Positions 38,041-44,133 of a DNA stretch of 64,000 bases are shown here, piece by piece. The DNA is taken from positions 26,317 through 90,316 of the forward strand of contig CAVHQU010000001.1 in the NCBI GenBank assembly GCA_963638555.1, given 5' to 3'. The stretch's first letter is position 1; each line of letters begins with the position of its first letter. This stretch comes from a bacterium (GTDB lineage Bacteria; Bacillota_I; Bacilli_A; RFN20; CAG-826). The notes under the pieces are model-generated. The model was not told the DNA's origin, did no database searches, and was given only the letters and a program-made list of their open reading frames with translations. The position numbers and the translations under genes are program-made.

Positions 38041-39294
38041 ATGACAAAGAAGCAAAAAGTCCTATCTGTCGTGTCTTTAATTTATAACATTGCCATTGTT
38101 GGTTTTGTTACTGGCGCATTTATTTATTCATATTTTTCAAGCAATGCCGGCGTTTCTTTGATGGCTTCTGGATTTTCTTCAATTCGTTTTTATACAGTTC
38201 TTTCCAATGTCTTGCTTGCAATATTCTCTTTGCCAATCTTAATTGGCGATATTGTTTGCTTAGCAAAAAAGAAATATGAACTTCCTACATGGGTTAGCAT
38301 TCTTAAATTCCTAGGAGTTGTCGGAACAACAATTACCTTTCTTACTGTCGTTTGCTTTTTAGCACCTAATGCCGCTAAATCAGGGGAAGGTTACTGGTCT
38401 ATGTTCCAAGGCCCTAATCTTTATTATCACTTGATTGTTCCAATTCTTGCCATCTTTTCTTTTGTATTCACAGAACTTAATGCAAGTTTCAAATTGCCTT
38501 ACACTCCTATCGGTTTAGTAAGTGTTGTTGGCTATGGCATTTTTTATATCATTAACTACTTCTTCCATTTAATCGACGATGGAAATGGCGGATATGATTG
38601 GTATGGATTTATTGGCGATTCAAAAAGACCGGTATGGCTTGTGGCAATCATTATGCTTATTGCCTCTTATCTTATTTGCATCGTTCTCTACTTCTTGCAT
38701 CGTTTGTTTACGGGCATCACCGTTGGTAAAAAAATAATGCCAATCGAAGAAAACTCTTATATGCGTAACGACCCAAATTATGATTATTCTTCAACTCATA
38801 ACTTTGAACCAATATATGAAGAAGACAAAATCAAAGGGGGTGACGAGGAAGAAAAACAATCCGTGAAAGAAGAGATGCCAGTAGAGCCTGAAGATATTAA
38901 AGTAGAGCAAAAGAAAACTTTCAAAAATCAAAAACGCAAAGAGGCCAAGAAAGAGAATAAGCCACTTCAAGATGAAAAAGAAGAGACCCCTGTAGTGGAA
39001 ATCCCTTCAGCGGAAGAAAATTCAGAAGAAGAAATCGATATTGAAATTGAATCGAAAAAAGAAACTTCTTCCAAAACGTCTGATCAAAAACAAAATAATT
39101 ACAACGGCAAAACTAGAACATACCACATATCCAAAGTTCCAGAAAAAGGTTGGCAAGTAAAATTAGCGACAGGAAAGAAAGCAATCAAATATTTCCCAAC
39201 ACAAAAGGAAGCAATCGCCTTTGCAAAATCTCTTTCCGAAACACAAGGCGGTTCAATAAGAATTCATTCAAAGAAAGGTAAAATAAGAAAATAA
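38041..39294 (+). CDS. Membrane protein with acidic low-complexity linker and C-terminal DUF2188-like domain
   Basis: About 240 aa of TM helices, then an E/K-rich stretch, then GKTRTYHISKVPEKGWQVKLATGKKAIKYFPTQKEAIAFAKSL. Confidence 0.55.
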   Translation: MTKKQKVLSVVSLIYNIAIVGFVTGAFIYSYFSSNAGVSLMASGFSSIRFYTVLSNVLLAIFSLPILIGDIVCLAKKKYELPTWVSILKFLGVVGTTITFLTVVCFLAPNAAKSGEGYWSMFQGPNLYYHLIVPILAIFSFVFTELNASFKLPYTPIGLVSVVGYGIFYIINYFFHLIDDGNGGYDWYGFIGDSKRPVWLVAIIMLIASYLICIVLYFLHRLFTGITVGKKIMPIEENSYMRNDPNYDYSSTHNFEPIYEEDKIKGGDEEEKQSVKEEMPVEPEDIKVEQKKTFKNQKRKEAKKENKPLQDEKEETPVVEIPSAEENSEEEIDIEIESKKETSSKTSDQKQNNYNGKTRTYHISKVPEKGWQVKLATGKKAIKYFPTQKEAIAFAKSLSETQGGSIRIHSKKGKIRK

Positions 39295-39331: not shown

Positions 39332-42037
39332 TTATTGTTTCTTTATCTTCTTCATCATCCAAAGAATGAACACAATTATCTCATGAAGAATTAATGGGCT
39401 AATGCCTAAGCCAAATACCCAAGCATAATCCCATCCTTCAAGGGGAACGACTTGAAATACATCATTAACGCCGGGAGTGAAGATTACAAAGAATTGAAGA
39501 GCCAATCCAAGAACAAAGGAAATCCAAAGTAGCCAGTTTTTATCTTTGAAAACATGTATGAAACTCTTCTTAACATTTGTCATGCCGAGCATGTGGAAGA
39601 GTTCGCTCATAGAAAGAACACAAAAAGCCATTGCTTGAGCTTCTTCAAGAACAGCGACGCTTGCTGAGTCATAGAAAGCCTTGATAACACTTGGATCAAG
39701 GGTAAAGCCTTGTTTCATCCAAACCTCAGAAAGGAAGGCAATTAAAGTTATTAAGCCAATCCAAACGCCATATCCAAAAGTAACTGCATATCCGCCATGG
39801 CTGAATAGAGATTCTTTAGGATCTCTAGGCTTATCATTCATGATATCATCAGGTTTCTTGTCTGCGCCAAGAGCAATTGCTGGCAAGGAATCAGTAATTA
39901 AGTTCACCCAAAGCAAGTGAATAGCAATGAGTGGAGATGGGAGGCCCATAATGGCTGCAAGCAACATACATATGACTTCGCCAATATTGGAAGAGAGCAA
40001 GAATAGAATTGTTTTCTTGATATTTGCGTAAATACCTCTTCCTTCTTCAACCGCTTTTTCAATTGAAGAGAAGTTGTCATCCGTTAGAACCATATCAGCG
40101 GCGCCTTTAGCAACATCTGTTCCTGTTATGCCCATAGCAATACCAATATCTGCGCTCTTTAATGATGGAGCATCATTAACGCCATCGCCAGTCATTGCGG
40201 CTATATGACCATTGGCTTTAATTGCCTTAACGATTGAAACTTTGTTTTCTGGAGAAACACGCGCAAACACACGCACGTGTTCAACCTTTTCCTTAAGTTC
40301 CTCTTCACTGCATGCATCAATTTGATCTCCGCTCATCGTTTGAGAGATATCATCAGCTATGCCAAGTTGTTTGGCAATGGCAAATGCAGTGTCTTTGTGA
40401 TCGCCAGTAATCATTATTGTGGTTATACCTGCTTTTTTAAGCGTTGAAACCGCACCTTTCGCAGTTTCTCTAGGCGGATCTACCATACCAACTAGTCCAA
40501 CGAATATGAGATTGTTTTCTTCTAACTGCTCATTAAAAGAAATGGCAAGAGCAAGAACGCGCAAAGCGTCAGATGACATATTCGACGCAGCTTCTTCAAT
40601 CTTTTTTACGTCTTCTTCGCTTATAGTTCTAGTTTCACCGTTAATTAATATACGTGTCGTATGTTTTAAAATTTGATCCATTGCACCTTTCGTATATGTA
40701 ATGGTCTTCTCACCATCTTTATGCATTGTGGACATCATTTTTCTTACGGAGTCAAAAGGCATTTCATTGATACGTGGTGTCTCTTTTTCGAGATCGCCTT
40801 TATGCATATCGAAAGAATTCGCAAATTCAATCAACGCAACTTCTGTTGGATCGCCATAAATTCCTCCATCAACTTTAGCATCAGAGCAAAGAGACATTCC
40901 TTTGGCTAATAAAGAAAGTTTATCTTTTGAAAATTCATCTATGCTATATATTTTCTCATCGCAATAAGTGCGAGCAACGGTCATCTTGTTTTGCGTTAAT
41001 GTTCCTGTTTTATCCGAGCAAACAACGGATACGGCGCCTAAAGTTTCAACAGAAGCTAAACGGCGAACGATGGTATTGACTTTAACCATCTTGGACATGC
41101 CCATAGCAAGAACTATTGTAACAACAGCAGTTAAGCCTTCTGGAATGGCCGCGACCGCTAAAGCAACTGAATCAAGCAAAGCACTTGACCAAGCCGTGCC
41201 TATATTGTTGTTAACTAATGCCCAGATTATTTTTACTGCAAGCATAAGAACAACGATAATGACAGTAAGAATGCCTAAGAATTTAGACAAACCTGCCAAT
41301 TTCTTTTGAAGAGGAGTTTCTTCTTCCCTTTCATTAGAAAGCATCGAGGCAATCTTGCCGATTTCCGTATTCATTCCTGTTGCAATTACCACACCTTCGC
41401 CATGACCATATACGACAGGGGTAGACATGAATACTTCATTAACTCTATCTCCAACCCCGCCTTCTTCTGAAAGAACGATAGTTGGATCTTTTTCAACTGG
41501 TAACGATTCACCAGTCAGAGACGACTCATCCGTTTTTAAAGAGAAAGATTTAATTAAACGTAAGTCGGCTGGGACAGTGCGGCCTTCTTCAAGAATGACG
41601 ATATCACCAACTACTAGTTCTTCTGCCGGTATTTCTAAAGTTTTGCCATCTCTCCTAACTGTAGCGGTTGGCGCCGACATCTTCTTTAATGCTTCAAGAG
41701 CTTTCTCCGCTTTCATTTCTTGAATTGTTCCAATTAAGGCATTAATTATGACGACACCGAAAATAATGAATACGTCAGCTAATCCTTCAACGCCTTCACT
41801 TTCCCAATTGATGATAGCTAAGACTAAAGATATTATTGCGGCTATCGCTAATATCAAAGTCATTGGATCAGCAATGTTGCCCCAAAATATTTTGTACCAA
41901 GGATCTTTTTTCTTCTCTTTTAATTTGTTTAGGCCATCTCTTTTTCTTCTTTTCTCCACTTCAGTTTGAGACAAACCTTCATTTTCTGACGTAGAAAAAG
42001 ACAAAAGAGTTTCATTTACATTTTTGTTTTCAAACAT
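39332..42037 (-). CDS. P-type ATPase, Ca2+ (or Ca2+/Mn2+) transporting, type IIA-like
   Basis: Phosphorylation motif CSDKTGTLTQN and hinge MTGDGVNDAPSLK. 901 aa with ten TM helices. RBS AAGGAG. Confidence 0.9.
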   Translation of the reverse strand: MFENKNVNETLLSFSTSENEGLSQTEVEKRRKRDGLNKLKEKKKDPWYKIFWGNIADPMTLILAIAAIISLVLAIINWESEGVEGLADVFIIFGVVIINALIGTIQEMKAEKALEALKKMSAPTATVRRDGKTLEIPAEELVVGDIVILEEGRTVPADLRLIKSFSLKTDESSLTGESLPVEKDPTIVLSEEGGVGDRVNEVFMSTPVVYGHGEGVVIATGMNTEIGKIASMLSNEREEETPLQKKLAGLSKFLGILTVIIVVLMLAVKIIWALVNNNIGTAWSSALLDSVALAVAAIPEGLTAVVTIVLAMGMSKMVKVNTIVRRLASVETLGAVSVVCSDKTGTLTQNKMTVARTYCDEKIYSIDEFSKDKLSLLAKGMSLCSDAKVDGGIYGDPTEVALIEFANSFDMHKGDLEKETPRINEMPFDSVRKMMSTMHKDGEKTITYTKGAMDQILKHTTRILINGETRTISEEDVKKIEEAASNMSSDALRVLALAISFNEQLEENNLIFVGLVGMVDPPRETAKGAVSTLKKAGITTIMITGDHKDTAFAIAKQLGIADDISQTMSGDQIDACSEEELKEKVEHVRVFARVSPENKVSIVKAIKANGHIAAMTGDGVNDAPSLKSADIGIAMGITGTDVAKGAADMVLTDDNFSSIEKAVEEGRGIYANIKKTILFLLSSNIGEVICMLLAAIMGLPSPLIAIHLLWVNLITDSLPAIALGADKKPDDIMNDKPRDPKESLFSHGGYAVTFGYGVWIGLITLIAFLSEVWMKQGFTLDPSVIKAFYDSASVAVLEEAQAMAFCVLSMSELFHMLGMTNVKKSFIHVFKDKNWLLWISFVLGLALQFFVIFTPGVNDVFQVVPLEGWDYAWVFGLGISPLILHEIIVFILWMMKKIKKQ

Positions 42038-42044
42038 ATTTATC

Positions 42045-42165
42045 TCCTTATCGAAAGCTTCGGTAAGGTCTTGCGAGGCAATTGCCGCTTAGTTCCGGCC
42101 CTAAGGCGTGTTGACGAATACTAAGCTTAACGCTACTCTCCTTAACGCAGGTATTCTAGCAAATC
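42045..42165 (-). ncRNA. yybP-ykoY (Mn2+) riboswitch-like leader upstream of the P-type ATPase
   Basis: Minus-strand RNA contains UUAAGG-AGAGUAGCGUU ... AAGACCUUACC. This matches the pattern of the L. lactis element (AAAGG-GGAGUAGCGUC ... GAGACCUUUCC), in which the outer pentamers pair as P1. The leader is GC-richer than its surroundings, and a CGAAGCUUUCG hairpin abuts the RBS. Confidence 0.5.
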
Positions 42166-42225
42166 TAAGCAATTAGATAAAGATTGATTAATGATTATTT
42201 TTAGTTCAAAATTTTCTTATCGCTT

Positions 42226-42483
42226 ATGAAAAAGATTGTTCTATATACTTCAAACACTTGCGGGAAATGTAAAATTATCAAACCTCAAATCGATGAGTTG
42301 TTGAAAAATAGAGATGACATTGAATATATTTTATATAGCACAGATAAGAAAGATGGATTCTCTTCTGCATTAGACAATAACGTATACTCATTGCCTACAT
42401 TAATCTTCTTTGAAAACGAAAAAGAGGCCAAACGCTTAGTCTCTTCATTCGATATTGATGATGTCAGGTCTTTAATTGCCTAA
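42226..42483 (+). CDS. Thioredoxin-fold (glutaredoxin-like) small protein
   Basis: MKKIVLYTSNTCGKCK contains a CxxC redox motif. 85 aa. Weak RBS. Confidence 0.55.
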   Translation: MKKIVLYTSNTCGKCKIIKPQIDELLKNRDDIEYILYSTDKKDGFSSALDNNVYSLPTLIFFENEKEAKRLVSSFDIDDVRSLIA

Positions 42484-44133
42484 GACCATTTCTTTGGCAT
42501 ATTCAAGTTGTTTCTCAGTAACTTTTCCACCGGAAATTAGATAAGCAATTTGTCTTATCTTTTCTTCGATGGTAAGTTCTTTAACTGTAGAGTAAGTCCT
42601 ACCATCTTTTACTTCCTTAGAAATTAATATGTGATGGTCAGAAAGAGATGCTACTTGTGGCATATGCGTTATAGAAATAACTTGGGAGGCAAGAGATATT
42701 TCCTTTATCTTTTTTGCAACGGCCTGAGCTGTTTCCCCAGATATCCCTGTATCGATTTCATCGAAAATGATTGTTGGGATTTTATTTGCTTTAACGAATA
42801 ACGCTTTGAAGGCAAGCATGATTCTTGATGCTTCACCACCAGAAATTACTTTCGAAAGAGGTTTTAATCCTTCACCGATATTTGTTTCAATCAAGAAATC
42901 AATATCATCAACCCCATTATCTTTTAGAGAAGACTCATCATTCTTGTGGTCCTTGAATAATATTTCAAACTTAACGTTCAATAAAAGATCTTTTAACGTA
43001 TTGGTCAACTCTTTTTCGATCAATTTAGCATTTCTTTCTCTTACTAAAGTAAGTTCATTCGCTTTAGAAAGAGTTTCTTTCAATAAGGCAGAACATTCAT
43101 CTTCTTTTTCTTTAATTTGAGAGTCGAAAGAAGAATTCTTTCCAATCATATTCTCTAACTCATCACGATAAGAGATTAACTCAGGTATACTCTTCTTGTA
43201 TTTTCTTTTCAAAGCCGATAAATCAGAATCTCTTTGTTCTAATTCATCAAGCCTATTCGGATCATAATCAAGGTTTCTAAATTCTTTCCTTAAGGTTGAG
43301 AGAATATCATCAATCGCATAATAATGATCATCTAAGGTTTTAAATGTTTCCTCGTATTGTTTTTGATAAGTCGATAATTTGGAAAGATTTTGATTGAGGG
43401 AGTAAAAATCATCCATGAATGTCCCATTCAGGATTTCATTTGATTCATTTATCAAAGAATAAATCTTGTCGTAATTCTTAAGCAAGGCAAGTTCAGAAGA
43501 TATTTCCTCTTCTTCATTTATAGAAAGATTCATCCCTTTAAGCTCTTTGTATTGATACTCATAGAAATCTCTTGCTTCATCTATTTTTGCCTTCTTCGAA
43601 AGAAGATCGCTATATTCATTCCTCTTCTTTTTATATTCATTTAGAAGGGACGTGTATTCATCTTTGAGTCTTTTTGTGAGTTCGGAAGAGAACCCATCAA
43701 GAATATCAAGATAGTTCTCAGGATTGAGAATCTTTTCGAAATCGAATTGAGAATGAATGTTTGCTAAATATTTTGAAATATATATTAAATCATTCAAAGT
43801 AACAGTTACTGAATTTATTTTAACGATATTCTTATTCCCTGAAATTACTCTTTCAATGATTATCTCATCCTCGTTTATTGGGACGTTTATTTTCGCTAAA
43901 TATGCGTTTAATTCAGGCCTATTGATTGAAAAATATCCTTTAACTGTTGCTTTAGAGGCGCCTGAACGAATTAATTCAGATGATGCTCTAGAACCCAAAA
44001 GAAGGGAGAGAGAATCGATCATTAAGCTTTTTCCAGCGCCTGTTTCGCCCATTAAAACAGAAAAGCCATCCTTGAAGGATATATCAATATTCTCAAAAAT
44101 GGCTAGGTTGTTAATTATAAGACGGTTCAACAT
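42472..44133 (-). CDS. recN: DNA repair protein RecN
   Basis: MLNRLIINNLAIFENIDISF...GETGAGKS Walker A. Long coiled-coil region. 553 aa. Confidence 0.9.
   Translation of the reverse strand: MLNRLIINNLAIFENIDISFKDGFSVLMGETGAGKSLMIDSLSLLLGSRASSELIRSGASKATVKGYFSINRPELNAYLAKINVPINEDEIIIERVISGNKNIVKINSVTVTLNDLIYISKYLANIHSQFDFEKILNPENYLDILDGFSSELTKRLKDEYTSLLNEYKKKRNEYSDLLSKKAKIDEARDFYEYQYKELKGMNLSINEEEEISSELALLKNYDKIYSLINESNEILNGTFMDDFYSLNQNLSKLSTYQKQYEETFKTLDDHYYAIDDILSTLRKEFRNLDYDPNRLDELEQRDSDLSALKRKYKKSIPELISYRDELENMIGKNSSFDSQIKEKEDECSALLKETLSKANELTLVRERNAKLIEKELTNTLKDLLLNVKFEILFKDHKNDESSLKDNGVDDIDFLIETNIGEGLKPLSKVISGGEASRIMLAFKALFVKANKIPTIIFDEIDTGISGETAQAVAKKIKEISLASQVISITHMPQVASLSDHHILISKEVKDGRTYSTVKELTIEEKIRQIAYLISGGKVTEKQLEYAKEMVLGN

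Follow-up and report, generated by a model that had tools for sequence, protein, structure and literature searches.

A probable P2-less yybP-ykoY riboswitch in the leader of a P2A-type cation ATPase gene from a Bacilli_A genome

The stretch of DNA analysed here (referred to as the window) covers 64,000 nucleotides of a bacterial contig (GenBank CAVHQU010000001.1, positions 26,317 to 90,316; GTDB lineage Bacillota_I, Bacilli_A, RFN20, CAG-826). On its minus strand, positions 42062-42145 probably form an aptamer of the yybP-ykoY class which lacks helix P2, folds as a three-way junction and serves as a Mn2+-responsive switch that releases the Shine-Dalgarno (SD) sequence of the mRNA of a P2A-type cation ATPase. 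The leader has a conserved and covarying structure, carries the core residues of the class and contains two competing pairings, and no terminator was found between 41800 and 42600. This RNA would be expected to bind metal, with Mn2+ as the likely effector and translation increasing upon binding. The element is real but ordinary. It is an unannotated addition to a well-known riboswitch class, in an architectural variant which has already been described, and it does not overturn the current understanding of this class.

Identification of the aptamer in orthologous leaders

The N-terminal 350 amino acids of the ATPase were used as the query in an ortholog search which yielded 80 loci. The nearest of these (86-93% identical) belong to uncultured Mollicutes, Bacilli, and Erysipelotrichaceae-type metagenome-assembled genomes (MAGs) from the gut, and the series extends to Clostridium at ~50% identity. 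GAGUAG followed by CAAGAC at a similar spacing was found in about half of the leaders. A census by regular expression counted 37 members against 52 found by covariance model, and it was superseded by that model (R1).

To derive the structure, 19 leaders were aligned with MAFFT (alignment A1); neither the window nor the six relatives nearly identical to it (L001-L006) were included. From A1 and no prior structure, RNAalifold recovered P1.1, P1.2, the inner part of P3.1, and P3.2. With the published architecture minus P2 imposed on A1, 84.5% of the cells pair, compared to 26-54% with slid partners. Moreover, double changes were found in 21 out of 24 pairs, and the covariation score was reached by none of 500 shuffles. 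R1 was built from A1 and was blind to the window. Searched against both strands of the 64 kb, it gave a single match at 42062-42145 on the minus strand (80.3 bits, E 5.6e-20), and this match is full length (1-88 of 88). The original prediction had proposed, from the sequence alone, a yybP-ykoY-class leader ahead of a Ca2+/Mn2+-type P-type ATPase; both the blind match and the domain matches of the ATPase bear this out.

R1 also recognizes distant members of the class. On two Escherichia coli loci it reported nothing but the two known aptamers, with 21 bits for alx (E 1.5e-3) and 18.6 bits for mntP (E 7e-3), although these E-values come from a short calibration and are rough. Among the 80 ATPase loci 52 are matched, once each and always just upstream on the strand of the gene, and there was no other match at E<=1 in the 371 kb searched (80 loci, both strands). 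When the 52 loci and the window were aligned together, 90.5% of the cells pair and double changes occur in 22 of the 24 pairs. This 53-sequence alignment was fitted to the model and is biased toward the structure, which is not the case for A1.

The remaining 28 of the 80 loci have no detectable aptamer (for example L007, L010, L011, L014, and L015), and in some of these the ATPase is 77-81% identical to that of the window. The riboswitch has thus been lost or replaced repeatedly. One further locus (L018, 1382-1477) has a GAGUAAC box, as in alx, together with a GUAAGAC box in a plausible P2-less layout, and was not reported by R1 at E<=1. Three loci with near-identical leaders and an ATPase 89-91% identical (L001, L002, and L004) come from MAGs labelled Bacteroides uniformis, Sodaliphilus, and Prevotella. 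Mollicutes or Bacillales is the label of other close relatives. The three contigs were probably mis-binned.

Architecture of the aptamer

Aptamers of this family share a core of two legs, P1.1-L1-P1.2-P2 and P3.1-L3-P3.2-P4. An adenosine extruded from the sarcin-ricin-like L1 reaches into a C-G pair that P3.1 forms above L3, and Mn2+ is bound by N7 of an invariant L3 adenosine together with the preceding C. An invariant AGA lies on the 3' side of L1, and P1.1 is the switch helix (PMC6754395, PMC6649816, PMC12153347).

The window leader (42145-42035, minus strand) reads UUAAGGAGAGUAGCGUUAAGCUUAGUAUUCGUCAACACGCCUUAGGGCCGGAACUAAGCGGCAAUUGCCUCGCAAGACCUUACCGAAGCUUUCGAUAAGGAGAUAAAUAUG. It follows the pattern UUAAGG-AGAGUAGCGUU ... 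GCAAGACCUUACC, then GAAGCUUUCGAUAAGGAGAUAAAUAUG. For the 84-nt RNA (42062-42145), the unconstrained minimum free energy (MFE) structure and the centroid are identical, and both are exactly the three-way-junction fold. The leader sequence and outer pairing quoted in the original prediction were accurate. The 5' strand of P1.1, UAAGG (42144-42140), is complementary to CCUUA (42068-42064), and across the 53 sequences this switch helix is 95.1% paired with double changes in four of its five pairs.

The 5' strand of L1 follows as AGAGUAG (42139-42133), of which GAGUAG is invariant (53/53). The first base divides the members into nine with AGAGUAG and 44 with GGAGUAG. The A in third place (42137) is the counterpart of A10 in the Xanthomonas oryzae structure, the adenosine extruded for the A-minor contact (PMC6754395). 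Next come the 5' strand of P1.2, CG (42132-42131), and a UUAA linker (42130-42127) which takes the place of P2. P1.2 covaries among the members (CG in 38, UA in 10, and AU in four).

The P3 leg spans 42126-42087 and was assigned from covariation and from published roles (PMC6649816, PMC6754395). P3.1 is formed by GCUUAGU-A-UUCG (42126-42115) with CGGA-ACUAAGC (42097-42087). Within its UUCG/CGGA part, directly above L3, lies the C-G receptor pair (C 42116 and G 42096). L3 is UCAACAC (42114-42108), in which the metal-site C and A are found at 42113 and 42112; the latter is the equivalent of A41 in Lactococcus lactis and A48 in X. oryzae. P3.2 closes the leg as GCC-UUAG-GGC (42107-42098). The paired share of the three helices of P3.1 and P3.2 is 80.5%, 97.5%, and 94.7%, and all of their pairs except one (12 of 13) show double changes.

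P4 is a 3 bp hairpin, GGC-AAUU-GCC (42086-42077), with an MFE of its own of -3.8 kcal/mol. Its covariants in the relatives include GGCU/AGCC, GGA/UCC, CGCU/GGCG, and AGCC/GGCU, and overall it is 87.9% paired with double changes in four of four pairs. In most members a single U (42076 in the window) stands ahead of the 3' strand of P1.2. The remaining 3' strands occupy 42075-42064, specifically CG of P1.2 (42075-42074), CAAGA of L1 (42073-42069), and CCUUA of P1.1. The core is strongly conserved: AGA on the 3' side of L1 is present in 53/53 members, C-A at L3 positions 2-3 in 50/50 that can be aligned there, and the C-G receptor pair in 50/51 (alignment columns 66/136). Judged by its sequence, the window aptamer retains all of the published metal-site and core residues.

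Expression platform and proposed mechanism

The 3' strand of P1.1, CCUUA, has two identical UAAGG partners. The first is the 5' strand of P1.1 and the second lies at 42050-42046, where it overlaps the SD sequence AAGGAG (42049-42044) upstream of the AUG start codon (42037-42035). Pairing with the second partner produces an SD-sequestering hairpin (42068-42046, the OFF state) which encloses CGAA-GCU-UUCG (42062-42052). For the leader, the MFE structure is the sequestered form at -27.0 kcal/mol, and forcing P1.1 gives -23.9 kcal/mol, a cost of ~3 kcal/mol. A small hairpin beside the ribosome-binding site (RBS) had been noted earlier, and CGAA/UUCG does adjoin the SD, with the ATG at 42037. However, the CGAAGCUUUCG hairpin that had been put forward as the expression platform is only part of it; the platform is the larger CCUUA:UAAGG helix, which contains the SD and encloses that hairpin.

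The same design is found in the relatives. In 33 of the 53 members the gap to the AUG is 14-45 nt, with no obvious terminator-like U run after P1.1. In this translational group the 3' strand of P1.1 and its partner beside the SD change together, for example CCUUA/UAAGG and CGAUUAC/GUAAUU. The inner hairpin is swapped for unrelated sequences, such as GGGC-GAAA-GCCC in L017, and sequestering hairpins with a different inner hairpin were also found in L012, L013, L004, and L006. Of 29 representative leaders, 23 have an MFE structure in which the 3' strand of P1.1 is paired with the RBS zone. In the other 20 members, which are more distant, the gap is at least 64 nt and the 3' strand of P1.1 serves as the 5' arm of a classic terminator. 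Through this one strand, the same aptamer is thus linked to a terminator in some members and to an SD-sequestering hairpin in others.

In characterized members, Mn2+ stabilizes P1.1 and blocks strand invasion by the platform (PMC6754395). By analogy with the solved members, the following mechanism can be proposed. The aptamer would lie at the extreme 5' end of the ATPase mRNA, where loops L1 and L3 of the two legs would dock, using an A-minor interaction, to create the metal site while P4 stacks at the junction. When metal is absent, CCUUA would pair with UAAGG of the SD region in a hairpin that includes the CGAA/UUCG stem, and the RBS would be occluded. Upon a rise in Mn2+, docking would stabilize P1.1 and the 5' UAAGG would capture CCUUA. 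The SD would then be freed and the exporter translated. Since no terminator was found, a translational ON switch is proposed, in which metal binding most likely frees the RBS and switches translation on.

Relation to known members of the class

The original prediction expected a four-way junction, which did not hold up. Only four nucleotides (UUAA) separate P1.2 from P3.1, P2 is impossible in the window, and a four-way junction with a cryptic P2 is thereby ruled out. Among the 53 leaders, 41 are P2-less with a 5' linker of 2-6 nt, four are four-way junctions (L064, L073, L074, and L076), and eight are P4-less with UNAAA-like linkers. Within the P2-less group the linker is UUAA in 18 of the 41 members, and CUAA, UCAA, or GUUA elsewhere. 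This conservation, together with that of the single U ahead of the 3' strand of P1.2, suggests that the linker is not a passive spacer but folds into a structured capping loop.

The trimmed members described in the studies consulted lack either P2 or P4, not both (PMC12153347, PMC6649816, PMC12934788). In E. coli alx, P2 is absent and a capping loop in its place gives a three-way junction (PMC12153347, PMC12934788), and in Streptococcus pneumoniae mgtA, located ahead of a P2-type ATPase, P4 is replaced by UNAAA (PMC6649816). A 2026 preprint predicts alx-like three-way-junction architectures spread over several families (PMC12934788), and for this reason the window aptamer is a new member only.

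The closest architectural counterpart is alx. Both lack P2 and have a short single-stranded linker (GAGUAAC-UUCA in alx, GAGUAGCG-UUAA in the window), and both have a 7-nt L3 beginning with U (UCAUUAC and UCAACAC, equal at 5/7 positions). In alx translation is controlled through P1.1, as is proposed for the window. Unlike the window element, alx precedes a TerC-family exporter gene in Enterobacterales, its P4 is long and harbors an intrinsic terminator, and its platform is long as well. In the window P4 is 3 bp without a U-run, the platform is a single 23-nt hairpin, and the relatives are Bacilli/Mollicutes-type gut MAGs rather than enterobacterial hosts. An A/C pair around the capping loop has been credited with the pH response of alx (PMC12934788), whereas the window has U at the positions flanking this loop and shows no sign of such a device. 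U as the first base of L3 has been proposed to be functionally special in alx-like members. Here, even near-identical relatives differ in having U or A at this position (U at 42114 in the window and A in L002 and L004; U in L008 and A in L056), so the U is not a fixed trait. No positive evidence for pH coupling was seen: the window has neither the P4 terminator nor the A/C pair of the capping loop, and the first L3 base is labile. An alx-like pH sensor was rejected on these grounds and kept only within the broader proposal given below.

The mgtA riboswitch shares with the window a P2-type Ca2+/Mn2+ ATPase gene in Bacillota, the L1/L3 core, and the use of the P1.1 3' strand. The streptococcal precedent invoked in the original prediction is real, as is that of L. 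lactis, the yoaB riboswitch (PMC6649816). However, the helix retained in mgtA is P2, with UNAAA in the place of P4, whereas the window keeps P4 and loses P2. Moreover, the mgtA platform is a terminator, compared to SD sequestration here. Leaders of the mgtA type, with a UNAAA linker, were also found upstream of orthologs of the window ATPase (L034, L035, L046, L047, and L065). In L046 the aptamer and platform (1127-1236) weakly match the Rfam family RF02617, SSRC10 (23.6 bits; gathering score 56). This suggests that the family named 'Streptococcus sRNA 10' is in reality the streptococcal ATPase-linked Mn2+ riboswitch.

The yoaB, E. coli mntP, and X. oryzae aptamers have the same order of elements, a sarcin-ricin-like L1 with an extruded A, C-A in L3, the 3' AGA, and the C-G receptor. 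The yoaB gene also encodes a P-type ATPase, and mntP is also controlled at translation. Unlike the window element, all three have four helices, and the mntP-type L3 is longer and begins with A (consensus ACAUACU). The NiCo (czcD) riboswitch, an H-shaped metal-sensing junction RNA, has been called architecturally similar to this class (PMC6754395), but it has no sequence or model similarity to the window element.

A further reduced form may exist. Eight aptamers with a 5' linker of 2-6 nt and no P2 (L023 1404-1487, L026 1397-1482, L029 1351-1433, L030 1384-1464, L040 1346-1427, L044 1340-1432, L052 1319-1404, and L075 1284-1367) have a 3' linker of 10-15 nt with no predicted hairpin, such as GAGUAAAUUAG or AAUAAUAAUAAUUAG. 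These eight may lack both P2 and P4. Along the orthologous series P2 and P4 are each dispensable, possibly both together, which makes these leaders useful as a set of natural variants on which junction dynamics in this class can be compared. A broader proposal would be that the P2-less form (41/53), together with the roughly eight relatives apparently without P2 and P4, represents the minimal metal-sensing core of the family. The lost helices would then be tuning devices and the input of these versions from gut Bacilli would have shifted, whether to another Mn2+ threshold, to a physiological Ca2+ response, or to a second cue as pH in alx. This proposal is considered doubtful.

Evidence against the assignment and alternative explanations

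Several observations weigh against a Mn2+-responsive member of this class. The search recommended in the original prediction, with the Rfam 15 model RF00080, gave no match in the window at the gathering score, and none even at E<=10 on a 500-nt slice around the leader. No Rfam 15 family reached its gathering score in the 64 kb, and at E<=10 the leader gave only chance-level small nucleolar RNA and small RNA families. The fold energy is unexceptional (z = -1.0 for the 84-nt aptamer and z = -0.66 for 161 nt), and the R1 alignment to alx is wrong at its 3' end because the P4 of alx is very long. The first L1 base of the window (42139) is A where G is near-universal. For the platform, a strand-swap permutation does support the pairing of the P1.1 3' strand with the RBS zone (3.07 against 2.45 +/- 0.19, a value reached in 1/1000 permutations), but the effect is modest since most P1.1 3' strands begin with CCU, which is complementary to any SD. 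Regarding the ligand, the nearest solved homolog of the ATPase is a Ca2+ pump, and in vitro the affinity of the S. pneumoniae aptamer is higher for Ca2+ than for Mn2+ (PMC6649816).

The RF00080 result is uninformative, because its positive control fails and four-way-junction relatives are missed. The control, the E. coli mntP leader (L081 1962-2058), belongs to a family member whose structure has been crystallized, and it attains only 41.6 bits where the gathering score is 45. This threshold was also missed by all of 20 orthologous ATPase leaders, four-way junctions included, and at E<=10 nothing was returned for the four-helix Clostridium leaders L064, L073, L074, and L076. The 177-position consensus of RF00080 lacks the 3' CAAGACC/P1.1 strand. 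The original prediction had stated that it should be given up if neither an RF00080 match nor a conserved four-way junction were found. Neither was found for the window, yet these were badly chosen grounds, as RF00080 fails its own control and accepted members lack P2 (alx) or P4 (mgtA) (PMC12153347, PMC6649816). RF00080 misses all of the ATPase-linked leaders on which it was tried, whether four-way, P2-less, or P4-less. Since these include bona fide members, automated annotation under-counts Mn2+ riboswitches in gut Bacillota.

The regulated gene (39332-42037, minus strand) encodes 901 amino acids with five P-type ATPase Pfam domains, and the Cation_ATPase_N match begins at residue 3 of the open reading frame (ORF). 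The top NCBIfam models are the PMR1-type and SERCA-type Ca2+ ATPases, both under their cutoffs. Compared to solved proteins, the nearest match is the Listeria Ca2+-ATPase LMCA1 (E 1.5e-195) and the second is human SPCA1. By these matches the product is an LMCA1/SPCA-like P2A P-type ATPase. The same fold and SD release could therefore serve a physiological response to Ca2+, or to Ca2+ with Mn2+, which would fit a Ca2+-exporting ATPase and the in vitro preference of the mgtA aptamer. The A-for-G change in L1 could conceivably retune the metal site as well. SPCA/PMR1-type ATPases, however, transport Mn2+ too. Moreover, Mn2+ is far better than Ca2+ at activating transcription read-through of mgtA, and only Mn2+ induced the mgtA reporter in vivo (PMC6649816). 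Ca2+ as the effector, alone or together with Mn2+, is thus regarded as unlikely. Mn2+ is the ligand expected from family membership, and it is favored because the Mn2+-selective adenosine of L3 and the whole core are kept and because a characterized ATPase-linked relative responds to Mn2+ in vivo (PMC6649816). The unannotated leader would thereby gain a regulator and a likely role, with Mn2+/Ca2+ efflux under metal control.

It was also considered that the leader is structured but no longer senses a ligand, being either a decaying riboswitch or a constitutive element for stability or translation. The 28 of 80 orthologous loci without the element imply that this regulation is dispensable, and the G-to-A change in L1 is atypical. 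However, the nine AGAGUAG members among the 53 fall into three or more lineages, among them the window group, L022, and L030, and A at this position is therefore tolerated. The stems covary, yet the metal-site residues stay invariant across deeply diverged members, a pattern indicative of purifying selection on the binding core, and the competition of the switch helix with the SD is maintained. Loss of sensing is thus quite improbable, and a metal-responsive leader is preferred.

Control by transcription termination, as in L. lactis yoaB and S. pneumoniae mgtA, is less probable still. The characterized ATPase-linked members are transcriptional (PMC6649816), and the 20 distant orthologous leaders have clear terminators built on the P1.1 3' strand. 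In the window, however, P1.1 and the AUG are only 26 nt apart, the scan of 41800-42600 detected no terminator-like site, and no U-run follows the sequestering hairpin, which itself contains the SD.

Finally, a chance resemblance of the boxes to the yybP-ykoY consensus is refuted and has almost no probability left: motif and energy alone are weak evidence, as the bare GAGTAG-N40-70-CAAGAC pattern, present once in the window, occurs at least once in 7/100 window shuffles, and Rfam gives no match, but the covariation tests with their extensive compensatory changes, the retention of the element in 52 orthologous loci, and the E-value of the blind R1 match leave no room for it.

Promoter and neighboring genes

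A putative sigma-70-type promoter was found at 42181-42153 on the minus strand, based on its sequence and on conservation in relatives. It consists of a weak -35 element (TTTATC, 42181-42176), a 17-nt spacer, and an extended -10 element (TG-c-TAGAAT, 42161-42153). A simple promoter scan did not list it, its -35 being weak. In the upstream spacer of nine relatives (alignment A3), the sole conserved block is TTGnTAnAaT, which corresponds to the extended -10, and columns T79, T80, G81, T83, A84, A86, and T88 are invariant. This block ends ~7 nt upstream of the aptamer, so the mRNA should begin at P1.1. The predicted transcription start is at ~42146-42148, 0-3 nt ahead of the aptamer. The span first proposed for the leader (42038-42180) thus covers promoter, aptamer, and RBS. 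Its description as GC-richer than its surroundings also agrees with the data, in that the GC content is 0.50 at 42050-42149, a local peak, compared to 0.23-0.35 on the flanks.

In the 64-kb window no tRNA or tmRNA genes were found. The divergent intergenic region (42038-42225, 188 bp) separates the ATPase gene from a gene encoding an 85-aa protein with a thioredoxin fold (42226-42483, plus strand), which is divergent from the riboswitch promoter region. The start of this gene is apparently kept in several close relatives, where CAT is found at the aligned position in A3. Directly downstream of the ATPase gene, on the opposite strand, lies a 417-aa ORF (38041-39294, plus strand), which carries a DUF2188 domain at its C-terminus and weakly matches the MAGa3780 family of mycoplasma membrane proteins.

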